The notes under the pieces: generated by a model
The model's database searches: none
What the model was told of the DNA's origin: nothing
Seen by the model: the letters and a program-made list of their open reading frames with translations, nothing else
UHGV virus genome: UHGV-0040082
Source: a virus
DNA: 33,970 bases
Reading direction: 5' to 3' (one strand)
Translations under genes and position numbers: made by a program
In this document: positions 1,483-30,549 of the stretch, piece after piece
Position numbering within the stretch: the first letter of the stretch is position 1
Layout of the letters: the number at the start of each line of letters is the position of its first letter

Positions 1483-3831
1483 ATGGCAACTAGTTTAGGT
1501 ACAATTTACTACGAAGTTGATGCAAAAACTGGTCAACTTCTCGTTGCTCAACGACAGGCAGACCAGGCTTTTGACAGCATCGAGCGTGGCGCAAAACGCG
1601 CTGACCGCCAGGTGAACACGCTTAAGACTTCAATCAAAGCGCTATCCAGGGTTATCCATTTGCTACTTGCTGCGGAGGCTGTACGCCAGTTTATTGACAT
1701 GGCGGAGCAAGCGAAAATGCTTCGCGTAAAAATCAAAATGCTTACTGGTGATACGGAGGCTGCCGGACGTGTTTTCGATGGCCTGAAAGAAATATCAAAA
1801 GAAACCGGGCAAAGCATGAAGGATACTGGCGAACTGTGGCAAGGCCTTGCTATATCGCTAAAAAACACATCCGCTACTGAAGGCCAATTGCTAAACCTGG
1901 TCGGTACGATTCAGAAAATGGGTGCATTAGGCGGAGCGTCAGCGGAACAGATGTCTAACTCTATGCGCCAGTTCCGCCAGTCTATAGACGGCGGCGTGCT
2001 GCGTGCTGAAGAGTTTAACAGTCTGCTTGAAAACACGCCAACCATCGTACAGACAATGGCTCGCCATATGGGGTTGTCAATGGGCCAGTTCCGCGCCGAA
2101 ATGCTGGACGGCAAGATCACGGCTGAAAGGATGGTTAACGCGATTCAGGCGGCTACACAGGAAACAAACGAGAAGTTCGCACAGTTGCCGCGCACATCCG
2201 GCATGGCCTTCAATGAGCTAAAAGTTGAGGTGATGGGACTTGTCGAACAGCTTGACGATCTTTTCGGCATATCTGACGGCGTTGTGTCAGCAATAGACTT
2301 AATCACTGGCGGCGTTGAGGGATTAGGTAAGGGCGCAAAATTCGCCGCAACATGTTTCAATACACTCAAAACCGCTGGTAGCGAGTTCATCGACATGTTT
2401 GACGATGTTGCTGTTAAGGCTGGCGAGGTTGCTGAAGAGATTATCAGGATGGTAACGCCAATCAAGGCGCTAATGGATGGGTACAAATGGATGAAGGAGA
2501 TCATTGACAAACGCAAGGAAGAGCTAAACAGCAACAACGAGAAGAAATTCGGCCCCACCATTGGCAAATTCATGACATTCAAGAATGACATAGAAAAAGC
2601 CACAGCCGCCTATGACGAGTTCATGCAGAAACAGGGTGAGGCTGACGATGGCAAGATCACCGGATTCGATCAGCCAGTTGGTAAGCCCAAAAAAGGCAAA
2701 AAGGGCAAAAATGACAAGAAATCTGAAGCTGATCGGCTTGGTGATGAAGGCATAAAAGTGTCCGACCAGTACAACAAGGACGCCGCCGCCATGCGTAAAG
2801 CGCTGGAGAACGGCAAGGCCATTGATGCTGCGTTCGCTCAGGGCAAAATAACCCTCCTTGAGTACAAGGCCGCGCAGAAAGGGATAGGCAAGGAGCTGAA
2901 GGACGAATTGGCGCAAATCCCTGTTGATGAGCTACGCGACAAATGGGATCACATAGTCAGCCCGATGGATCAGCTTAAGGGAGAAATTGACCCAATCAAG
3001 CAGGCGCAAAATGAATGGGCCGTTCGAAAACAAATGCTGATAGACCTTGGCGCTACAGAGGCGCAACAGAAACAGGCGCTATTGGAATACGAACAACAGA
3101 TCAGAGATCTGAAATGGGAGCAATGGCAGGCGCAAAGCGAAACAAACGGCCTGATTGGTGCTTGCGTTAGTGGCCTGAAAGGTGGAATGGGCAACGCCCT
3201 TACCGGCCTACTAAACGGTACTCAATCGTTAAGCGAGGTTTTCGCCAACCTGGGAAGTAGCATACTTAACACTGTTGGCAACAAACTATCAGAAATTGCC
3301 GCCAACTGGATAGCAGATCAGTTGATGATGGAAACGCAAAGCAAGGCTACCCAGGCAAGTACAACGGCTGGCGCTGTTGCTGCCCAAGGCGAGATTGCGG
3401 CGGCGGCTATCCCGGCGGCGGCGGCAACGGCTGCGTCAACTGGTGGTAGCTGGGCGGCGGCTGGTGCTGCGGCGCTTTCTGCGATCATGTCACTGGCAAC
3501 GTCAATCTTTGGCGGCGGGCGTTATAATGGTGGCTCTGTTAATGGTGGTAGTCTGTATCGCGTAGGGGAACACGGGATTCCTGAGTTATTCCAGACTAGC
3601 AACGGGCGTCAGTATATGATTCCTGGCGAGAATGGTAGGGTAATTCCTGGTCGCGATCTCTTCAGTGGTGGCGGCATCAACATGCCTGTTAACATCACTG
3701 TCCAGACCACAAACGGATTTAGCGACGAAGACAGTCGCAGACTTGAACAGACGATGGAACGCGTCGCAATGAAAATGATGGCAAGGGAATCGCAACGGCC
3801 CGGAGGGATGTTACAACCTCGCAGGAAATAA
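1483..3831 (+). CDS. Tail tape measure protein
   Basis: 782 aa, largely helical/coiled-coil composition, Ala/Gly-rich hydrophobic segment (AAIPAAAATAASTGGSWAAAGAAALSAIMSLA), located upstream of M-L-K-I-J homologs; RBS GAGGT. Confidence 0.85.
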   Translation: MATSLGTIYYEVDAKTGQLLVAQRQADQAFDSIERGAKRADRQVNTLKTSIKALSRVIHLLLAAEAVRQFIDMAEQAKMLRVKIKMLTGDTEAAGRVFDGLKEISKETGQSMKDTGELWQGLAISLKNTSATEGQLLNLVGTIQKMGALGGASAEQMSNSMRQFRQSIDGGVLRAEEFNSLLENTPTIVQTMARHMGLSMGQFRAEMLDGKITAERMVNAIQAATQETNEKFAQLPRTSGMAFNELKVEVMGLVEQLDDLFGISDGVVSAIDLITGGVEGLGKGAKFAATCFNTLKTAGSEFIDMFDDVAVKAGEVAEEIIRMVTPIKALMDGYKWMKEIIDKRKEELNSNNEKKFGPTIGKFMTFKNDIEKATAAYDEFMQKQGEADDGKITGFDQPVGKPKKGKKGKNDKKSEADRLGDEGIKVSDQYNKDAAAMRKALENGKAIDAAFAQGKITLLEYKAAQKGIGKELKDELAQIPVDELRDKWDHIVSPMDQLKGEIDPIKQAQNEWAVRKQMLIDLGATEAQQKQALLEYEQQIRDLKWEQWQAQSETNGLIGACVSGLKGGMGNALTGLLNGTQSLSEVFANLGSSILNTVGNKLSEIAANWIADQLMMETQSKATQASTTAGAVAAQGEIAAAAIPAAAATAASTGGSWAAAGAAALSAIMSLATSIFGGGRYNGGSVNGGSLYRVGEHGIPELFQTSNGRQYMIPGENGRVIPGRDLFSGGGINMPVNITVQTTNGFSDEDSRRLEQTMERVAMKMMARESQRPGGMLQPRRK

Positions 3832-8565: not shown

Positions 8566-11500
8566 ATGAGTAGCGGCGGCGGCAAAGCCAAAACACCAAC
8601 ACTATTGAACGATAACCTGTATCACAAACAGTTTTATCGTGTTTTAGATATTCTCAGCGAAGGGCCGATATACGGTCCGGTAAACCAGAAAGCGCCACTG
8701 AATGACGTGATGCTTAATGACACACCTGTTACTGACGCAAACGGGAATACATCAATCCCCGGGATTAGTGTAGCCTGGCGCAACGGCACGGCTGACCAGT
8801 CGCCGATTAATGGTTTTAATGCCATTGAGTCAACCGTTATTGTCAACGCAAAGGTAACTCACGACACGCCAATAATCAGGACTGTTTCAGATCCAAACGT
8901 TACCCGCGTCAGGTTAAATCTTGGTGTTGACGCTCTCGTCCAGTCAGATGAAAAGGGCAATCAATACAATACATCCGTCATGTTGATGGTTGATGTTAAA
9001 CCGTCATCTTCTTCTACGTGGTCGCTGATTAAAGATATACACATTGGTCCCGGCAAACAAAGCGGTGAGTATCTGGAAGCCCACATCATTAAAGCACCGG
9101 ATGAAAAACCGTTTGATATTCGCGTTCGTCGCGTGACAGCAGACAGCCACGGCGATCTATTGCGGAACGATACGCGGTGGAGCAGTTACAGCGAAATAAT
9201 TGACGATAACCTGTCTTATCCCCATACCGCTGTAGCTGGCGCGGTAATTGACCACGATCAATATACTGATACGCCTACACGTACCTATCACCTTCGCGGC
9301 CTGATTGTTGATGTTCCTGATAACTACAACACAGAAACGCGCGCGTATTCTGGTTTATGGCTTGGCGGATTCAAAAAAGCGTACACCAATAACCCTGCGT
9401 GGATTTTCCGGTATCTGGTTAAAAACGAGCGCTTCGGGCTTGCTAAACATGCTGGTTACATTGATGTTGATGATGGCGCTTTGTACGTGCTCTCCCAATA
9501 CTGCGATCAGTTGGTTGATGATGGCTATGGTGGCCTTGAACCTCGCATGACGCTTAACGCTTACATTACGGAGCAAATGAGCGCCCGCGACCTACTGGAT
9601 AACATTGCAGGTATGTTCCGTGGTATCGCGTTATGGGACGGGCAACGCCTTACCGTGATGATTGATGCACCACAGGATCCAATTGCCACCATCACAAACG
9701 CAAACGTCGTTGATGGCGCGTTTACTCGCTCAAGTCTTCCGCTTGCAGAGTGTTACAACGCCGTGATCGTATCATGGACTGACCCGGAAAACGGCTGGGA
9801 GCAATCAAAAGAATACGTGGCAGATGATGAACTAATCGCCCGCGATGGTTATAACGAAACCACGTTGGAGGCGTTCGGGTGCACGTCACGCGGGCAAGCG
9901 TACCGCGCTGGTAAATGGCTGATAGAAACAGCAAAACGCGAGCCGTCTAAATTCACGTTTAAAATGGCCCGTGACGCAATTCACTTCACCCCTGGTGATA
10001 TTATCGAGATACTCGACAATAACCGCGCTGGCGCTCGTTTAGGCGGTCGCATCGTGGCAAACAACGGCAGGGTTATCACTGTCGATAAGGTTGATTCTGA
10101 ATATATCGCCCCCGGCGACACCATTAGCCTGCTTGATAGTGACGGCAAATTTAAAAAACACCAGATCACCGGAGTTAGCGGAAACAAAATTACCCTTGCA
10201 TCTGCCCCGGCATGGATTCGTAACGGTACTGTGTTTGCCGTGTCAACTAACGCAGCAAAACCCGTATTGTGTCGAATCGTCAGCGTGGCGGAAACTGAAA
10301 ATAACAGCGTGTACACCATAGAGGCTGCACAGCATGATCCGCACAAACAGGCTGTAGTAGATAATGGCGCAATCTTTGAGGTCAACAACGATACGCTTAA
10401 TCACTTCCGCGTGCCAAACATTGAAAACCTGAAGGTGTTAAACATTGGATCTGAAACAGTTCAATGCCGCGCAACATGGGAAACACTGACGACAACTCAT
10501 CGCCTGACCTTTGAAATCCGCGTATACAATTCAGCGGGGGCCGTAGTTAAAAGCTACGAAACTACTAATTACAGTTATGATTTTTATGGCATTGATGCGG
10601 GAACCTACTCATTAGGCATCCGTGGCAGAAATGACACGGGCATGAAGGGTGCTGAAAGCATTGTGGATCTGGTTATTGGTGCACCAGCGGCCCCGGTAGG
10701 AGTTAACTGGGTTCCCGGTGTATTTCAGGCTACAGTTTACCCGATCAGCAGAACAACGCTTACCACTGACACCAGTTATGAGTTTTATTACTCAGGTGAA
10801 AAACAGATCACCGATCCGGCATCAGTAACCACTAAGGCACAATATACCGGGCGTGGTCATCAGTGGACTTTTGGCGGCATGAACACGGGGCACACCTATT
10901 ACGTTTATGTGCGCACACGCAATGCTTTTGGCGTGTCTGACTTTGTGGAGGCATCAGGTAAGCCGACAGAGAATTTTGATGAAATCAGCGATTACGTCAC
11001 CAAAGACGTGATGAACTCAGAACAGTTCAAGGAAATGATTGGTGACATCAAAGATCTTGGTGATCGCACGGATGTTATTGAAAATGCCACAAATGAACTA
11101 AAAGCAGCTACCGACAACCTCAAAACTGCAACTGATAATCTGACCAACATAACTGACGATTTAAGAACTGAAACCGACAACCTGACTAACATAACCGAAG
11201 ATTTAAGAAATGATACTGACAACCTGATTACAGAAACAGGATCAATAAAAGCTGATACAGATACGCTAAAAAAAGAAACAGAAGATCTTTATAAAAAAGT
11301 TAAGGAAAACGCCGATGATATTGGTCAGCATGAGTCAAGAATTGATTCATTAGAAGTGTCCAGCGAAAAAGTTGGCAGCGAACTGGCGCAAGCAAAAGCA
11401 AGCCTGCAAAACGCGTCATTGGCGCTTATCAACAACTCGCTTGCACAGACAAACACGCGCGTTACCCTTACCGCCCAGTACAAAAAAGGCAGAACGGAAA

Positions 11501-14115
11501 CGAAAGCGGAAATTGACCGTATTGACAACGTTATCGCTGAAGAGAAAAAAGCAACGGCTGAATCACTGAAAACCATCACGGCAGAAATGAACACGATGGA
11601 TTCCAACCTTAAAGGTCAGATCTCCAGTGTGGAACGCGCAGTGGCTGACGAGGCTAGTGCCCGCGCTGAAGCTATTAACGGTGTGAACGCCTCAATAAGC
11701 AATCTCGACAAGAAAACGGATGCCAGCGTCAATAGGCTTGATCAGGCTATTGCAGATGAAACGAACGCCCGCACACAGGCGGTCAGTGACGTTAACGCAA
11801 GTATCTCGGTACTTGATAAGAAAACTGACGCCAGCGTTAAACGCCTGGATCAGGCAATCGCTGACGAAACCAGCGCAAGAACCGAAGCTATCAGTGGCGT
11901 GAACGCATCAATTTCAACGCTTGATAGCAAAGTGGAAAGCAATATAACGCGCATAGATAAAGCTATTGCAGATGAAACGCAGGCGCGTACAGACGCAATA
12001 AGCGGCGTCAAAGCGAGCATTAACACACTTGAAGGCAACACCAATTCAGAAGTTAAACGTCTGGATCAGGCAATCGCTGACGAGGCCAGTGCCCGCACAC
12101 AGGCGGTAAGTGATGTAAAAGCATCAGTAAGCAACCTTGAAAGCAAAACTGACGCCAGCGTTAAACGCCTGGATAAAGCTATTGCAGACGAAACAAGCGC
12201 ACGCAGCGAAGCTATTAGTGGGGTAAATGCCTCAGTATCAGCGCTCGACAAGAAAACCGATTCAAGCATAAGCCGCCTTGATAAAGCCATTGCGGATGAA
12301 ACAAGCGCGAGAACCGAAGCCATCAACGGTGTGAATGCGTCAATTTCCACACTCGACGGCAAGGTTACAAGTAACGTTAGCCGCCTTGATAAAGCAATAT
12401 CAGACGAAACGAAGGCAAGAAGCGACGCAATAACAGAGGTTAAAGCAGACTTAACAACGCTTGAGAACAGCACAAACGCCAGCGTTAAGCGTCTTGATCA
12501 GGCAATTGCCGATGAATCAAGCGCCCGCGCACAAGCAATATCAGGACTCAGCGCAAATCTTGGCACTGTTGAAAATAATGTTGGCAAAAACAGCGACGAA
12601 ATAAATCAGGCAAAAGCAAGCCTGCAAAACGCATCTATTGCACTTATCAATAACTCAATCGCTCAAACCAACACGCGTGTTACTCTTTCAGCCCAATACA
12701 AGAAAGGAATCAGAGAAACCAACGCGAAAATTGACCGCATTGACAATGTTGTAGCAGAAGAGAAAAAAGCAACGGCAGAAGCCATTAGCGGGGTAAGCGC
12801 ATCGATCACCGATCTTGATAAGAAAACTGAAGCAAGCGTTAACCGCCTTGACAGGGCGATTGCAGACGAAACAAGCGCCCGCAGCGAGGCTATCAGCGGC
12901 GTGAATGCGTCAATTTCCACGCTTGATAGTAATGTGAAAAGCGACATTACCAGGATGGACAAAGCCATCGCCGATGAAACAAAAGCACGCGCAGACGCAA
13001 TAAGCGGCCTTAGCGCATCGCTTACCAGTACGATCAACTCAAAAGTGTCTGAAGTGTCAACGGCACTTTCTACGCATGAGGAATCAAGTGCAGAAAAATT
13101 TAGCCAGATCTCGGCGTCTTTCGAATCAGTAAACTCAAGCATTACAGAATGGTCGCAGGCAATGGCTACAGCAGATAAGGCGTTGTCAACGAAAATTGAT
13201 CAGCTAACAGTGACTGTTAACGGGAATAAGACGGCAATAGAGACGACATCTAAAGCGTTAACCGACTTTAAGGGTAATGTTGATGCGTCATATTCAATTA
13301 AGCTCGCCACCGACAACAACGGCATGAAATACGCAACAGGTATGTCACTTGGCCTTACTGGTGATGGGACCAACTTTCAGTCGCAGTGTATTTTCCTTGT
13401 TGACCGCTTCGTGTTAATGACTGACGCTAACGGTTCGTATCAAACGCCTTTCTATGTAACTAATGGCGCAATGTATGTAAGAGAAGCGTTTATTAAAGAC
13501 GGCACTATCAACTCCGCCAAAATAGCTGATCTAATACAGTCAGTTAATTATAGCTGGGAAGGCGCGACAGGATGGGCGATAAATAAAAACGGTAACGCAG
13601 TATTTAACCAAGTAACCGTAAGGGGGACGGTATACGCTAATGCTGGTGTGTTTAACGGTACTGTTTACGCAACTGGCGGTAAATTTACTGGAGCAGTTGA
13701 AGCCACAAGTTTTGTTGGTGACGTAGCAAGTATGTCAGTGATAAACGAGAAAGTATTTCCGTCAATGAGGGGGAGCGGCAGCAGGGAAACTTCAAAAACT
13801 TATCTTGATTCAAGTTCATCAAGTTTATCAAAAACCGTTTACGTTATGATTCCGTATGATTTGTCATACTATACACATAGTGAATCTTCTCGTATCAGCG
13901 TAACTATAAACATAAACGGACACGCAAAAACAATTAATATAGAAAGGCCAGCATCAGGTCCATCAATGTCATCTGTCGCGGTGCACTGTGTACATGACCT
14001 AACATACCCAACAATTACAGTCAAGGTTACGGAAAACTTTACCAATACATCCGCTGCATCAATAAGAAAACCAGGCTTGATACTTATAACAAGAAGTTCA
14101 GGAACATGGGTATAA
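8566..14115 (+). CDS. J: Host specificity protein J (central tail fiber / tip attachment), with a large repeat insert
   Basis: 1849 aa. N-terminal ~800 aa and C-terminal ~330 aa follow recalled lambda J (e.g. ILSEGPI.GP, YHLRG.I..VP.NYN, AFGCTSRGQA.RAG.WL, HFTPGD.IEI.D, AAQH.P.K.A.VDNGA). Residues ~830-1510 are a repeat-rich insert not in lambda J. Confidence 0.9.
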   Translation: MSSGGGKAKTPTLLNDNLYHKQFYRVLDILSEGPIYGPVNQKAPLNDVMLNDTPVTDANGNTSIPGISVAWRNGTADQSPINGFNAIESTVIVNAKVTHDTPIIRTVSDPNVTRVRLNLGVDALVQSDEKGNQYNTSVMLMVDVKPSSSSTWSLIKDIHIGPGKQSGEYLEAHIIKAPDEKPFDIRVRRVTADSHGDLLRNDTRWSSYSEIIDDNLSYPHTAVAGAVIDHDQYTDTPTRTYHLRGLIVDVPDNYNTETRAYSGLWLGGFKKAYTNNPAWIFRYLVKNERFGLAKHAGYIDVDDGALYVLSQYCDQLVDDGYGGLEPRMTLNAYITEQMSARDLLDNIAGMFRGIALWDGQRLTVMIDAPQDPIATITNANVVDGAFTRSSLPLAECYNAVIVSWTDPENGWEQSKEYVADDELIARDGYNETTLEAFGCTSRGQAYRAGKWLIETAKREPSKFTFKMARDAIHFTPGDIIEILDNNRAGARLGGRIVANNGRVITVDKVDSEYIAPGDTISLLDSDGKFKKHQITGVSGNKITLASAPAWIRNGTVFAVSTNAAKPVLCRIVSVAETENNSVYTIEAAQHDPHKQAVVDNGAIFEVNNDTLNHFRVPNIENLKVLNIGSETVQCRATWETLTTTHRLTFEIRVYNSAGAVVKSYETTNYSYDFYGIDAGTYSLGIRGRNDTGMKGAESIVDLVIGAPAAPVGVNWVPGVFQATVYPISRTTLTTDTSYEFYYSGEKQITDPASVTTKAQYTGRGHQWTFGGMNTGHTYYVYVRTRNAFGVSDFVEASGKPTENFDEISDYVTKDVMNSEQFKEMIGDIKDLGDRTDVIENATNELKAATDNLKTATDNLTNITDDLRTETDNLTNITEDLRNDTDNLITETGSIKADTDTLKKETEDLYKKVKENADDIGQHESRIDSLEVSSEKVGSELAQAKASLQNASLALINNSLAQTNTRVTLTAQYKKGRTETKAEIDRIDNVIAEEKKATAESLKTITAEMNTMDSNLKGQISSVERAVADEASARAEAINGVNASISNLDKKTDASVNRLDQAIADETNARTQAVSDVNASISVLDKKTDASVKRLDQAIADETSARTEAISGVNASISTLDSKVESNITRIDKAIADETQARTDAISGVKASINTLEGNTNSEVKRLDQAIADEASARTQAVSDVKASVSNLESKTDASVKRLDKAIADETSARSEAISGVNASVSALDKKTDSSISRLDKAIADETSARTEAINGVNASISTLDGKVTSNVSRLDKAISDETKARSDAITEVKADLTTLENSTNASVKRLDQAIADESSARAQAISGLSANLGTVENNVGKNSDEINQAKASLQNASIALINNSIAQTNTRVTLSAQYKKGIRETNAKIDRIDNVVAEEKKATAEAISGVSASITDLDKKTEASVNRLDRAIADETSARSEAISGVNASISTLDSNVKSDITRMDKAIADETKARADAISGLSASLTSTINSKVSEVSTALSTHEESSAEKFSQISASFESVNSSITEWSQAMATADKALSTKIDQLTVTVNGNKTAIETTSKALTDFKGNVDASYSIKLATDNNGMKYATGMSLGLTGDGTNFQSQCIFLVDRFVLMTDANGSYQTPFYVTNGAMYVREAFIKDGTINSAKIADLIQSVNYSWEGATGWAINKNGNAVFNQVTVRGTVYANAGVFNGTVYATGGKFTGAVEATSFVGDVASMSVINEKVFPSMRGSGSRETSKTYLDSSSSSLSKTVYVMIPYDLSYYTHSESSRISVTININGHAKTINIERPASGPSMSSVAVHCVHDLTYPTITVKVTENFTNTSAASIRKPGLILITRSSGTWV
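11629..13080 (+). repeat. Tandem 108-bp (36-aa) coding repeats inside J, about 11 copies in two arrays
   Basis: Repeating unit RLDQAIADETSARTEAISGVNASISTLDSK.....VK visible in protein and DNA; the segment AKASLQNASLALINNSLAQTNTRVTLTAQYKKG...IDRIDNV.AEEKKATAE occurs twice (DNA ~11386 and ~12604). Confidence 0.8.
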
Positions 14116-14121
14116 AAATAA

Positions 14122-14149
14122 CCCCGCTTCGCGCGGGGTTTTCTTTTAG
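14122..14149. terminator. Rho-independent terminator after J (bidirectional)
   Basis: Hairpin ccccgc-ttcgc-gcgggg followed by ttttctttt; A-run on the other side. Confidence 0.7.
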
Positions 14150-14385
14150 TAGTTAGCTACACAGTTAGAAGGGCTACCGATGCGGCGCATGTTGTGATCG
14201 AGTTCATGACACCATTGACCAGTATAAGGCAGTTTTTCAGTGTCATAGACAAGATGACCTTCACCATCATAGACAACATCTTGTGGAATTACTCCGCTAT
14301 TCGGCAGGTTATGCAATGCGGCCTCTTTGTCAACAGCGCAACCAGTAAGAGCTACGGCCGCAGAGAATAAAACCACTTTGAACAT
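14146..14385 (-). CDS. Small lipoprotein (candidate Cor/Llp-type superinfection exclusion protein)
   Basis: 79 aa; N-terminus MFKVVLFSAAVALTGC = signal peptide plus lipobox; small mature part with two Cys; opposite strand between J and the side tail fiber. Confidence 0.55.
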   Translation of the reverse strand: MFKVVLFSAAVALTGCAVDKEAALHNLPNSGVIPQDVVYDGEGHLVYDTEKLPYTGQWCHELDHNMRRIGSPSNCVANY

Positions 14386-14572
14386 GTTTTTTCATTTTTT
14401 AATCCTCGTTCTTGTTAGCTCGTCCGGTTCATCCGGTGTCTTGAATATCCGACAAAACAACATTTCGTATATTGATATAAATCAACAAATACATTTTGTG
14501 TAAGCAGAAAATGCAACACAGATCACAAAATGGTAGAATTATTCCGTTAATTAACAAAATGGAGTCATCGAG

Positions 14573-17500
14573 ATGATTTACACAACTGGAACAGTTGCCA
14601 TTAACGGCAATACTGTTAAAGGCACGGGAACAAACTTTTCCGCGCCGCTTTCTCTTATTCGTGTAGGTTGCACGCTCATTGCTGTTGGCAATCCTGTGCA
14701 GATCTTTACCATCACGGAAATTAAAAGCGGCACTGAACTGTTAGTGACGCCAGCAGCTAACCCCGCAATCCCTGCCGGGACAAAATTTAGCATCCTGCTA
14801 TCTGATTCGATCTCAGTTGATGGGCTTGCTCAGGACGTAGCTGAAACCCTGCGTTACTACCAGAGCAAAGAAACAGAAATCGCCTCCGCCGTAGAGTGGT
14901 GGAATGAGATCGGCGGCGAAGGTCAGTTGGATCAGCTTCTTACCAACATTCGCGCAGAAACAGCCAAATCAACCGCTAACGCTCAAAAAACAGAAACTGA
15001 CAAAAACGCAGCAGAAGCGTCAAAAACAGCGGCTGCAAAATCCGCCACGGCAGCGAAAACATCAGAAACCAACGCTAAGGCAAGCGAGACGGCAGCGAAA
15101 ACAAGCGAAACCAAAGCCAAAACATCAGAGGACAGGGCGCAAGAATATCTGAATCAAATGGGAAGGCTTACCAGCCCAATGGTCCAATGTGCTTGGCCTG
15201 TTGAAACTAGCGGTAATGGCGCTTACGTTAAGATTGCTAAACTTAGCGATCCAAAGTCATCAGACTGCCACTTAACGCTAATGGTTACAAATGGCGGTGG
15301 CTACGGTTTAAGTTACGGGAATATTGACTTTATAGAGATCTCCGCTCGAGGTCTTAACGACACAGGCGAAGTAACCAGTGAAAATATATCTAAATTTTTA
15401 AGTATTCGCCGACTCGGTTCACCAAACCTTCCCAATAATAGTCAAATGTGTTACGGCCTGGTTAAAGGTGACGGCTATATCGAGGTCTGGTGCTACCAGC
15501 GATCTTATATTAAAAACACAAAAGTAGCGGTGCTGGCGCAGACTGGCAACACGGAATTATACATTCCTGAAGGATTTGTTAAGCAAGCCGACGCACCCGC
15601 TGGATATATTGAAAGCCCAGCAGCAAGGATTTACGACCAGGTAAACAAACCCAGCAAGGCAGATCTGGGCCTTTCTAATGCTATGCTTACAGGCGCTTTC
15701 GGTCTTGGCGGTAGCGGGATATCAACAACCGGCAAGATGAGCGATGTAGAGATCTTAAAAGCTCTGCGTGACAAAGGTGGTCATTTCTGGCGCAGTGATA
15801 GGCCGACCGGAAGTACGGCGACCATTTATAGCCGCGGTTCTGGTATATTCTCGCGGTGCGGCGATACGTGGTCGGCGATCAATATCGACTACGGAACAGG
15901 TAAAGTCAAGGTTTACGCTGGTAACGATGGTGGACTTAATAGTGGTAATTTTTCCGTCAATGAGCTATACGGAACCAAAAATAAACCGTCGAAATCGGAC
16001 GTTGGACTTGACAACGTAACCAACGATGCACAGGTTAAAAAATCCGGCGACACCATGACTGGCGACCTGTCGATCACTAAAGCAACACCTTCGATATACA
16101 TTCGTTCAAAAAGTGGAACCGCCCATGTATGGTTCCAGAATGAGGATCAATCGGAACGCGGTGTTATCTGGGCGCCTACCAATTCCGAAGGACTTGGCGA
16201 AGTTCACATCAGGGCCAAAAATACAAAAGGTGAATCAACTGGTGAACTCATTGTTCGTCACGACGGGGAAATTAGGGTTCCCAGTCTCACAGCGAGTAAA
16301 AAAATAAAAGGCGCAACCGCAGATTTTACAAACACATCAGAAACCACGACGGAGAACACGTTAAAAATCAGCGGTAAGCAGCATACACCGTTAGTTTTAA
16401 CGCGTACCGGGTATTCTGAAAACCTGTCCATTGGCTTCAAGGTTGATAACGTTGTTCAAAAATACCTCGGTATTAATAGCGGTGGGGATCTGTGTTTTGG
16501 TGATTATGCCGATCACAAAACAAACAGCAAAGTTATCACGCAAGCAGTGCTTGATAGCGGTGTGACGGTAGGCGGTCAGACAACCTTTTCTAAACTTGCC
16601 ACATTTAGCAAAGGCATGACCGGGCCTATCGTACCGGAAGGGCTTGACTCACGTACCATTGATCTTAATGACCTAATCATCAATGGTTCAGATATAGGAT
16701 CGGTCAAATACTATCAATGTACATCTTCCAGTGGTGGAGCGAACATTACCAACAAGCCTGACGGCGTAGGCGGTAACTTCTTGCTGCGTGTAGAGTCAGT
16801 CCGTAAAGTTAGTGATACTGACTATATAAGTATGCAAACACTGACTAGTGGCGACAAAGAACGCGTATTTGTTCGTTTTAATACTAATAGTAAGTGGACA
16901 GCATGGTGTGAACCTGTTGTATCGGGATGGAAGCAGGATGTGTCTGTTAAGACGCTAACAGCAGCCGAAGACGTCATCCTTAAAAACAGTGATACTGGTC
17001 CGCGCCTTATTTTAAGGAACTCTAACACATCGGCGCAGTCGTGGAGTGTAAGGGTGTGGGGTGAAAGCGGAAGGGAAAGCGTTTTTGAGGTTGGTAACAG
17101 CAATAGTTACATGTTCTATGCTCAGGAAGATGCAGCAGGAAACAAGAAATTTGACTTTAACGGTGATATTTCATGTAAGACGCTATATCAAACTTCTGAC
17201 CAGAGCCTTAAAGACAACATTAAGGTTATAGGTGACGCCACCGAATCCATCCGCAAAATGAATGGGTACACCTACACGTTTAAGGACGATGGCCTGCCTT
17301 ACGCTGGCGTTATTGCACAGGAAGTAATGGACGCGCTGCCTGAAGCGATAGCGTTTACCACTCTTTGCGGCAAGGAGCTACAAGGACCAACAACTGACGG
17401 CAACATCTTACGCGAGGAAATGAAGTGCCTCAGCGTTGACTATGCGGCGGTGACTGGTTTACTTGTCCAGGTGGCACGCGAAACGGATAACCGCGTCACC

Positions 17501-17608
17501 GAACTGGAAGAGGAGAACGCAAGCCTGAAAGCTAACATTGCCGCAATGGATGAGCGGATAGCAAAACTTGAAGCGCTTATCAGTCAGTTGACCGGAAGCG
17601 AAGAATAA
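14573..17608 (+). CDS. Side tail fiber with C-terminal intramolecular chaperone (peptidase S74-like) domain
   Basis: 1011 aa; Ala/Thr/Lys-rich heptad-like N-terminal repeats; C-terminus has SDQSLKDNI...GVIAQEV...P.A motif typical of self-cleaving fiber chaperone domains, then a coiled-coil tail; RBS GGAG. Confidence 0.8.
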   Translation: MIYTTGTVAINGNTVKGTGTNFSAPLSLIRVGCTLIAVGNPVQIFTITEIKSGTELLVTPAANPAIPAGTKFSILLSDSISVDGLAQDVAETLRYYQSKETEIASAVEWWNEIGGEGQLDQLLTNIRAETAKSTANAQKTETDKNAAEASKTAAAKSATAAKTSETNAKASETAAKTSETKAKTSEDRAQEYLNQMGRLTSPMVQCAWPVETSGNGAYVKIAKLSDPKSSDCHLTLMVTNGGGYGLSYGNIDFIEISARGLNDTGEVTSENISKFLSIRRLGSPNLPNNSQMCYGLVKGDGYIEVWCYQRSYIKNTKVAVLAQTGNTELYIPEGFVKQADAPAGYIESPAARIYDQVNKPSKADLGLSNAMLTGAFGLGGSGISTTGKMSDVEILKALRDKGGHFWRSDRPTGSTATIYSRGSGIFSRCGDTWSAINIDYGTGKVKVYAGNDGGLNSGNFSVNELYGTKNKPSKSDVGLDNVTNDAQVKKSGDTMTGDLSITKATPSIYIRSKSGTAHVWFQNEDQSERGVIWAPTNSEGLGEVHIRAKNTKGESTGELIVRHDGEIRVPSLTASKKIKGATADFTNTSETTTENTLKISGKQHTPLVLTRTGYSENLSIGFKVDNVVQKYLGINSGGDLCFGDYADHKTNSKVITQAVLDSGVTVGGQTTFSKLATFSKGMTGPIVPEGLDSRTIDLNDLIINGSDIGSVKYYQCTSSSGGANITNKPDGVGGNFLLRVESVRKVSDTDYISMQTLTSGDKERVFVRFNTNSKWTAWCEPVVSGWKQDVSVKTLTAAEDVILKNSDTGPRLILRNSNTSAQSWSVRVWGESGRESVFEVGNSNSYMFYAQEDAAGNKKFDFNGDISCKTLYQTSDQSLKDNIKVIGDATESIRKMNGYTYTFKDDGLPYAGVIAQEVMDALPEAIAFTTLCGKELQGPTTDGNILREEMKCLSVDYAAVTGLLVQVARETDNRVTELEEENASLKANIAAMDERIAKLEALISQLTGSEE

Positions 17609-30311: not shown

Positions 30312-30421
30312 GCTTTGCAAAAATTGCCGCATTGCTTGCGGCTTTATCTATCGCCGTGCTGTATCTCAGCGTATCTCTTTATATCACGGTAGCGATCATT
30401 AAACTCATTACTAACATGTGA
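30308..30421 (+). CDS. Possible 37-aa hydrophobic membrane peptide
   Basis: MSFAKIAALLAALSIAVLYLSVSLYITVAIIKLITNM; ATG overlaps the upstream stop (ATGA). Confidence 0.3.
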   Translation: MSFAKIAALLAALSIAVLYLSVSLYITVAIIKLITNM

Positions 30422-30429
30422 GGCCAATC

Positions 30430-30549
30430 ATGAAAGTCGGTAAGGATATTGTGACTGTCGCGTTTTGCATTATTTGCTTCCCGTTTGTGGTTGTTTCTTG
30501 TGGCGCATTTGCTGTGCTGGTTAGCTTTATTTTCAGAGGATTGCTGTGA
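30430..30549 (+). CDS. Possible 39-aa hydrophobic membrane peptide
   Basis: MKVGKDIVTVAFCIICFPFVVVSCGAFAVLVSFIFRGLL; RBS GAGG 6 nt upstream; stop overlaps the next start. Confidence 0.3.
   Translation: MKVGKDIVTVAFCIICFPFVVVSCGAFAVLVSFIFRGLL

Follow-up and report, generated by a model that had tools for sequence, protein, structure and literature searches.

What does the small lipoprotein gene lying between the tail-tip gene J and the side tail fiber gene of UHGV virus genome UHGV-0040082 encode, and on which receptor would its product act? Small phage lipoproteins that disable their own phage's receptor decide which phages superinfect a lysogen and also stop progeny from being wasted on cell debris. 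The initial annotation of this stretch of 33,970 nucleotides (nt), the whole of which is called the window here, had described the gene as a candidate receptor-blocking exclusion factor comparable to those of FhuA-dependent phages (Cor of phi80, N15, and HK022 and Llp of T5). Our comparisons retain the exclusion function and change the receptor: the open reading frame (ORF) is probably a type-C Lpp superinfection exclusion (SE) lipoprotein of the mEpimmI phage group, one that would block LamB-dependent phages.

Identity of the lipoprotein gene

The gene and the parts of its product lie in the window as follows.

14146..14385, minus strand: lipoprotein ORF, 79 amino acids (aa) plus stop, MFKVVLFSAAVALTGCAVDKEAALHNLPNSGVIPQDVVYDGEGHLVYDTEKLPYTGQWCHELDHNMRRIGSPSNCVANY, beginning MFKVVLFSAAVALTGC; ortholog of the mEpimmI type-C Lpp (Lpp010) without the first 3 codons of the 82-aa form
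14341..14385, minus strand: signal peptide as readable in the window, 15 aa, MFKVVLFSAAVALTG, by a PROSITE-type lipobox rule
14338-14349, minus strand: lipobox L-T-G-C, by the same rule
14149..14340, minus strand: mature lipoprotein, 64 aa, delimited by alignments, with a predicted lipidated Cys1 followed by a variable linker

The 79-aa ORF with a signal peptide and an LTGC lipobox is indeed present on the strand opposite J and directly after it. We applied the lipobox criterion as a pattern test ([LVI][ASTVI][GAS]C plus a +2 residue other than Asp), and the protein conforms to the PROSITE-type rule through the segment LFSAAVALTGC, with the Cys at residue 16, a Lys within residues 1 to 7, and an uncharged hydrophobic stretch preceding L-T-G-C. 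The +2 residue is Ala, and the protein thus carries no inner-membrane retention signal. Alignments of the family revealed an invariant PNSGV.P motif and a conserved C-terminal block, DTEKLP.TGQWC..H..RR.GSPSNCV..Y, in the mature domain, and the window protein has all of these elements. Two internal Cys residues, at mature positions 44 and 60, are conserved (the window protein has Cys at 1, 44, and 60) and probably form a disulfide.

This is a genuine gene and not a chance ORF. It matches PHROG 12984 ("lipoprotein") with an E value of 1.3e-26 over residues 5 to 79 (1e-26 for Lpp010) and has homologs in 44 phage records; its ratio of nonsynonymous to synonymous substitution rates (dN/dS) among alleles is 0.03 to 0.19, the differences falling mostly at synonymous sites, and the gene is therefore under purifying selection. 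A Pfam scan of the lipoprotein returned no family at E ≤ 1. The family is tiny, comprising 13 clusters at 90% identity in a collection of 5.8 billion proteins and about 3 genuine clusters at 50% identity among 1.84 billion representatives, and a deeper homolog search of those representatives neither deepened the alignment nor found a bridge to other families.

Over its first 25 kb, the window is 85 to 90% identical to MagusPhagus, mEp554, mEp044, mEp010, mEp021, mEp013, and mEp515 across one third to two thirds of their length, and by sequence we assign it to the mEpimmI group (mEp021-like) of temperate, non-lambdoid coliphages. Across its 79 aa, the lipoprotein shares 96% identity with the Lpp proteins of mEp010, mEp013, and mEp044, and 63 of its 64 mature residues agree with those of Lpp010; it is 100% identical to residues 4 to 82 of WP_086611538.1, a RefSeq protein of E. 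coli prophages.

The type-C Lpp of mEpimmI phages was named by Negrete-Mendez et al. in 2025 (PMC11893012). Lpp010 (gp116, mEp010_116) expressed from plasmid Ptac excluded mEp010, mEp044, mEp554, and, unexpectedly, lambda, and a lamB knockout abolished plating of mEp010, mEp013, mEp044, and mEp554 (PMC11893012). Through this near-identical ortholog, the function of the lipoprotein is essentially known from the literature. The exclusion function first proposed is supported by the activity of a 63/64-identical protein expressed from a plasmid, but the choice of FhuA as the receptor is not, as the excluded phages use LamB.

The window gene resembles that of Lpp010 in its position (convergent after J, with a common terminator) and in its conserved upstream region. 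It differs by one mature substitution (Ser to Glu in DG-S/E-GHL), by one additional A in the window copy that removes the codons MKN from the frame and separates the ORF from its Shine-Dalgarno (SD) sequence, and by the adjacent J tip, which is of a different sequence type from that of mEp010. The same phage group also contains the type-A lipoprotein Lpp021 (mEp021 gp81), which has the same role, namely, exclusion matched to the phage's own receptor (PMC11893012), but is of another sequence type: mEp021 and mEp515 are OmpA dependent, and the type-A lipoprotein excludes both (PMC11893012). The records of mEp021 and mEp515 match the window only from 14489 onward and not in the lipoprotein ORF.

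LamB as the probable target

Receptor data are available for a wider set of homolog carriers. Distant homologs (50 to 77% identity) occur in lytic phages of unrelated genome types, including Seuratvirus, Nonagvirus, EP23, and HH3, and in each the gene is convergent directly after J and precedes the lateral fiber gene. Terminal receptors in the BASEL collection were determined experimentally (PMC8594841, S5 Table), and among its small siphoviruses, Bas01 to Bas25, the LamB users are Bas21, Bas22, Bas23, and Bas24 only (PMC8594841). The 44 records with lipoprotein homologs include exactly these four phages and none of the 21 others, which use FhuA, BtuB, LptD, YncD, or TolC. All receptor-typed carriers (mEp010, mEp013, mEp044, and mEp554 plus Bas21 to Bas24) thus use LamB. 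Van den Berg et al. (2022) noted that LamB-targeting phages such as Bas23 seem to carry an SE lipoprotein after gpJ, and they regarded the action of such a lipoprotein as unclear, LamB having no known allostery (PMC9586334). The predicted SE lipoproteins of Bas21 to Bas24, along with the CAjan, Seurat, 9g, and EP23 homologs, belong to the same family as the window protein (50 to 77% identity, with PNSGV.P and the Cys-containing C-terminal block shared) and show the same synteny (J, convergent lipoprotein, lateral fiber) and LamB association, whereas their carriers are lytic and of an unrelated genome type and the linker after the lipidated Cys differs. Most probably, therefore, the target receptor of the window protein is LamB and not FhuA.

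The idea that the window encodes a Cor/Llp-family lipoprotein blocking FhuA on behalf of a FhuA-dependent phage is, by comparison, hardly credible. The size, the lipobox, and the place beside a receptor-binding gene do resemble T1 cor (itself convergent after the J-receptor-binding protein genes) and T5 llp, and many lambdoid mEp phages are reported to be FhuA dependent (cited in PMC11893012). However, against a comparison set consisting of Cor of T1 and HK022, Llp of T5, and Rtp45 of Rtp, the resemblance ends at the signal peptide. PHROG 1119 recognized Cor of T1 (3e-30), Cor of HK022 (2e-37), and Llp of T5 (1e-19), and the window protein had no PHROG 1119 match at E ≤ 1; permissive BLASTP aligned signal peptides only, and hhalign profile-profile comparison aligned 24 columns, all of them within the signal peptide or lipobox. 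The kinship with Cor and Llp that had been suggested is not borne out by these alignments. The Cys arrangement differs as well: in Llp a Cys11-Cys58 bond ties the termini together (PMC9586334), and Cor and Llp have a Cys at mature position 9 to 12 plus one near the C terminus, whereas the internal Cys residues of the window protein are at 44 and 60, so that the Cor/Llp disulfide pattern is absent. Finally, none of the 8 FhuA-dependent siphoviruses among Bas01 to Bas25 carries a homolog.

Membership in the Rtp45 family was also rejected. Rtp45 scores 1.3e-37 with PF24052 and 9.8e-33 with PHROG 4281, and the window protein had no PF24052 match at E ≤ 1 and no PHROG 4281 match. As an aside, PDB 9RPS chain D, labeled "Phage lipoprotein," is Rtp45 of Rtp (E = 1.4e-48) in the LptDEM-Rtp45 cryo-electron microscopy complex.

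Judged by sequence, the window lipoprotein is an analog of Cor and Llp rather than a homolog. Like Llp of T5 and Cor of T1, phi80, HK022, and N15, it is a small predicted outer-membrane lipoprotein of about 60 mature residues with one probable internal disulfide, is encoded beside the receptor-binding function, and is associated with receptor-specific exclusion and probable periplasmic action. Unlike them, it has a different Cys spacing and no similarity past the signal peptide, and its likely target, LamB, is a plug-less trimeric porin, whereas theirs is a TonB-dependent transporter whose plug mediates the action of Llp. With the LptD-directed Rtp45 it shares the small lipoprotein gene after the J/receptor-binding protein gene and a receptor that is not TonB dependent; the sequence family and the receptor differ, and Rtp45 is the best mechanistic model. 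Sequence comparison thus distinguishes at least three unrelated lineages of ~60-residue exclusion lipoproteins encoded beside receptor-binding genes: Cor/Llp (FhuA), the Rtp45 type (LptD), and the window family (LamB).

Receptor-binding tip of J

If the lipoprotein protects against LamB-dependent phages, the tip of the neighboring J protein bears on whether the window phage is one of them.

13723..14112, plus strand: J receptor-binding tip, last 130 aa, "type 2," from alignment of relatives' J tips

Two sequence types of J tip were distinguished among the relatives. Type 1 (...SPTVIVSRGSGSFSG) occurs in mEp010, mEp013, mEp044, E. coli 190, and Bas22, and type 2 (...RKPGLILITRSSGTWV) occurs in the window, E. 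coli 2-331, PRO_A, and MIN12. Along its entire length, the type 2 tip of the window shares 38 to 42% identity with those of Bas21, Bas23, and Bas24 (LamB) and of CAjan, Seurat, and EP23, and only ~25% of it can be aligned with the tip of the LamB-verified mEp phages. Since Bas22 and mEp010 carry type 1 and the tips of Bas21, Bas23, and Bas24 resemble type 2, LamB-dependent phages have tips of both types, and a gene of the type-C Lpp family follows each. From these similarities we infer that the window phage itself uses LamB.

Two further observations concern J itself. The breakpoint between tip types lies near FVGDVA(S/N)M, ~130 residues before the C terminus of J. Farther upstream, J residues ~980 to 1480 (window ~11500 to 13000) form a long array of ~36-residue repeats (...AIADETSAR.EAISGVNASIS.LD...) with self-matches at 36-residue offsets, and the repeat number differs among relatives, the complete J proteins compared being 1,813 to 1,849 aa long; repeats in J have been reported at positions 950 to 1475 (PMC11893012).

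A +1 A allele at the start codon

Whether the window copy is translated like those of its relatives is a separate question, for which the elements below are needed.

14403..14407, minus strand: SD sequence GAGGA, with spacers of 7 nt to the ancestral ATG and 17 nt to the in-frame ATG
14393-14395, minus strand: ancestral SD-served ATG, out of frame in the window, from the sequence
14387..14392, minus strand: A6 run, one A more than the A5 (or GGAAA) of all 15 relatives in the alignment, followed by C and then the in-frame ATG
14383-14385, minus strand: in-frame ATG of the lipoprotein ORF, 10 nt 3' of the ancestral ATG
14330..14395, minus strand: out-of-frame upstream ORF of 21 codons (MKKHVQSGFILCGRSSYWLRC, then stop), overlapping the first 56 nt of the lipoprotein ORF

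The initial annotation had pointed to an out-of-frame ATG with a better ribosome-binding site 10 nt 5' across the A6 tract and had left the start uncertain; this ATG is there, and a +1 A relative to every one of the relatives accounts for its frame. The extent first given to the gene, up to 14400, takes in the upstream ATG and not its SD sequence. The 15 relatives used for the start-site comparison were 5 phages and 10 complete E. coli genomes. In all 15, the SD-served ATG is in frame and yields an 82-aa precursor, MKN(M/V)FKVV... (MGN in mEp013), with an 18-aa signal peptide beginning with the same residues, and the SD sequence is conserved as GAGGA or GAGGC. The N-terminal Met-Lys is nearly invariant in the alignment of the whole family. 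An intact SD-served start for the 82-aa precursor is absent in the window, which has A6 instead of A5, and the window start codon corresponds to codon 4 of the relatives; at this codon the E. coli prophage alleles also read ATG, and most mEp phages have GTG or GTA. Start-site annotation of the lipoprotein gene is inconsistent across records; for example, RefSeq gives the ortholog of E. coli NRZ96606 (NZ_OZ501612.1, 248-487) as 79 aa despite A5 and an SD-served ATG in frame (82 aa).

Four contigs carry a called protein identical to the 79-aa product. One of them, ERZ27287485 k141_128687, is 100% identical to the window across 6,240 nt and thus represents the same phage. Another, ERZ28614608 scaffold_15933, carries at 2550-3050 a 501-nt cassette (terminator, ORF, and control region) that is 100% identical, A6 included, to window 14100-14600, while its J and fiber flanks are only 84 to 90% identical to the window and its fiber is 736 aa long versus 1,011 aa. 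A sequencing error behind A6 is ruled out by the presence of the same A6 in this independently assembled metagenome contig with divergent flanks, and A6 is a real allele that moved between, or persisted in, two phage backgrounds. The identity of the cassette suggests that it was recently exchanged horizontally, with the conserved terminator and intergenic region as possible junctions.

How much lipoprotein the A6 allele makes can be judged from the sequence around the start. Apart from GAGGA, no SD-like sequence precedes the in-frame ATG, although the surrounding RNA is A/U rich and mostly unpaired; of the three possibilities, full, weak, and no expression, we consider weak expression the most likely for this allele. 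Neither programmed frameshifting nor transcriptional slippage is likely at the A6 run, which is short and would need a shift of +1 rather than -1. It is possible, though we hold it to be the less probable case, that the window copy is a disabled or strongly attenuated allele in which SD-loaded ribosomes translate a 21-codon junk peptide, a view that is compatible with the family assignment and concerns activity in the window phage only. The SD-served, in-frame ATG of all 15 relatives, the nearly invariant Met-Lys of the family, and the distance of 17 nt between GAGGA and the in-frame ATG favor such a view; furthermore, the A6 allele is one synonymous change away from the nearest in-frame (A5) allele, so that decay could not yet show. 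Set against this, the in-frame ATG is just 10 nt downstream in an unstructured context able to support SD-independent initiation, the 15-aa signal peptide still satisfies the lipobox rule, the remainder of the ORF is intact, and the identical A6 cassette in a second phage background indicates that it has been maintained or transferred.

Locus layout and control region

The gene lies between the following neighbors and candidate regulatory elements.

8566..14115, plus strand: J tail-tip protein, 1,849 aa, with Pfam domains FNIII-A_GpJ, Phage-tail_3, Ig_J, Ig_J_second, and Phage_Tail_Tip; convergent with the lipoprotein gene
14120..14140, both strands: bidirectional intrinsic terminator hairpin with an 8-bp stem, 6 G-C pairs, and a 5-nt loop; T-runs after the hairpin on both strands
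14396..14572, both strands: divergent control region of the lipoprotein gene and the side fiber gene, 177 bp, from alignment of relatives
14429-14557, minus strand: 42-codon ORF, corresponding to the small "hypothetical protein" coding sequences annotated in mEp010, mEp013, mEp044, mEp554, and MagusPhagus
14531-14539, plus strand: extended -10-like TGgTAGAAT ahead of the fiber gene, by sequence inspection
14557-14530, minus strand: weak promoter candidate TTGTTA-16-TACCAT, by sequence inspection
14573..17608, plus strand: side tail fiber, 1,011 aa, with a C-terminal S74 chaperone-peptidase (Peptidase_S74), from Pfam and the RefSeq annotation of relatives; divergent neighbor

The gene occupies the same position (directly after J, on the opposite strand, and before the fiber gene) in mEp010, mEp013, mEp044, mEp554, MagusPhagus, 10 E. 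coli prophages, and KurtStettler. The hairpin at 14120-14140 can serve both J on the plus strand and the lipoprotein gene on the minus strand because T-runs follow it on both strands, in agreement with the common bidirectional terminator first described, and a Rho-independent terminator is annotated at the matching place in mEp010, mEp013, mEp044, and mEp554.

The control region is strongly conserved, with 12 to 15% variable columns among 8 phages and prophages versus 33% at third codon positions of the adjacent ORF. Coding by the 42-codon ORF at 14429-14557 was considered as the cause of this conservation and rejected, since the ORF is frameshifted in mEp013, its stop position varies, and its variable columns are spread 5/6/4 over the codon positions; this ORF is probably an annotation artifact. 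A structured RNA received no support either: in an Rfam scan of the conserved intergenic region all matches were under the gathering score and located on the terminator, and RNA folding of the region gave z-scores of -0.3 and -1.55, with no structured-RNA signal. The prophage small RNA svsR, which down-regulates lamB (PMC12803456), was checked and is unrelated to the lipoprotein locus. Also present in the control region are a 9-bp inverted repeat (14492-14500 and 14524-14532) and a CRP-like half-site, TGCAA-N6-TCACA, which, judged from the candidate -10, is not positioned as an activator site would be.

Two observations concern the surroundings of the locus. In E. coli 2-331, the prophage ends just past the side fiber, beside ydaN/zntB; in the window, minus-strand phage genes (17813-26587) follow the fiber, and the window therefore has a phage (or differently permuted or integrated) order, unlike the 2-331 prophage. 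Among the remaining window ORFs of 40 aa or more, just one has a plausible lipobox (...FPFVVVSCG...), at 30418-30549 on the plus strand (43 aa, GTG start). It is located in a possible lysis region and may encode an o-spanin-like lipoprotein or match the lipobox pattern by chance.

Proposed mode of action

In the mechanism that we propose, Sec would export the precursor, the LTGC lipobox would direct its lipidation and cleavage, and Lol would then sort it to the outer membrane, as its +2 residue is Ala. The 64-residue mature protein would make the cell refractory to phages that use LamB as the terminal receptor, as was shown for the 63/64-identical Lpp010. It would do so by attaching to LamB on the periplasmic side of the outer membrane; by entering the LamB channel or shifting loops, it would then render the LamB surface unrecognizable to the J tip. 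The gene would constitute a self-contained cassette (control region, ORF, and common terminator), antisense to the late tail genes, that travels with LamB-type J tips. In the A6 allele, the lipoprotein would be made only from the ATG three codons further in, which has no SD sequence and overlaps the 21-codon ORF, and it would probably be expressed weakly or not at all.

We prefer a periplasmic site of action because both solved analogs act from the periplasm: Llp binds the periplasmic face of FhuA (PMC9586334), and Rtp45 binds the periplasmic rim of LptDE, where a hairpin pushed up the lumen displaces EL4 and EL5 (PMC12685063). Foldseek of the predicted structures against the PDB found nothing at E ≤ 0.001, and with the low confidence of those predictions a fold shared with Llp or Rtp45 is neither backed nor excluded; a PDB sequence search with the family profile gave chance or signal-peptide matches only.

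A different topology, with the lipoprotein exposed on the cell surface and covering the extracellular LamB loops from outside, appears unlikely. For receptors that are not TonB dependent, van den Berg et al. considered surface exposure of SE lipoproteins a general possibility, given that neither LamB nor LptD has known allostery, and named LptD as the example (PMC9586334); the ability of mEp013 to escape Lpp010 is consistent with epitope-level masking. Yet the structure with LptD, precisely such a receptor, showed a periplasmic lipoprotein (PMC12685063), and no surface-export signal is recognizable in the window lipoprotein sequence.

Nor does the same escape require that J-LamB binding be the step affected. 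A lipoprotein acting after adsorption, blocking channel formation or DNA passage in the manner of Ltp or Sie exclusion, would leave LamB usable by at least one LamB-requiring phage in Lpp010-expressing cells, as mEp013 indicates it is, and would be compatible with spot assays. We consider this somewhat less likely still, as the excluded phages (mEp010, mEp044, mEp554, and the unrelated lambda) have LamB use in common, the same assays report exclusion of the OmpA-dependent mEp021 and mEp515 by type-A Lpp021 and not by Lpp010, in unrelated phage groups the family is found strictly together with LamB-type J tips, and both solved analogs target the receptor itself.

Several points weigh against the assignment as a LamB-blocking type-C Lpp or against the periplasmic mechanism proposed for it. 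Lpp010 did not exclude mEp013, which requires LamB (PMC11893012); LamB is thus not simply removed or fully occluded, and the escape of mEp013 suggests that it stays in place in an altered or partly masked form. The published exclusion assays are spot tests, from whose host-range pattern the receptor block is deduced (PMC11893012). LamB has no plug and no known allostery (PMC9586334), and the periplasmic model is drawn by analogy only. AlphaFold2 predictions of the full-length and mature proteins were of low confidence, with predicted local distance difference test scores (pLDDT) of 54.5 and 61.6, respectively. The type 2 tip of the window is unlike the tips of the phages assayed, and its LamB use is read from ~40% identity to BASEL tips. 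Tips of both types, type 1 in E. coli 190 and type 2 in E. coli 2-331, occur with one and the same lipoprotein sequence; tip and lipoprotein therefore lack tight co-adaptation and recombine independently. Finally, no convincing sigma-70 promoter for the lipoprotein gene was found within 14396-14572, and the A6 copy may make little or no protein.

A more speculative combination, which we regard as doubtful, is that the family blocks LamB by a third structural route, unlike those of Llp on FhuA and Rtp45 on LptD (e.g., with the conserved PNSGV.P-to-C-terminal domain threaded into the channel from the periplasm), and/or that the +1 A allele is a selected "dimmer" and not a dead gene. If so, threading into the maltoporin channel would also shut maltodextrin uptake and carry a nutritional cost, which a "dimmer" A6 allele would lower by reducing lipoprotein output via the overlapping upstream ORF.

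Implications for LamB-directed exclusion

LamB, the lambda receptor, is among the best-studied phage receptors, and an exclusion lipoprotein directed at it was predicted in 2022 and shown to work in 2025. Solved structures cover two receptor classes, FhuA-Llp and LptDE-Rtp45, and none covers the LamB-directed family to which the window protein probably belongs. The window brings no new kind of system; it corrects the receptor assignment from FhuA to LamB and adds two new details, namely, a real +1 A start-site allele and identical cassettes beside two different J-tip types. The latter indicates that the cassette moves between phages independently of J-tip type, and the former, as a natural start-site frameshift, could serve as a ready-made expression variant.

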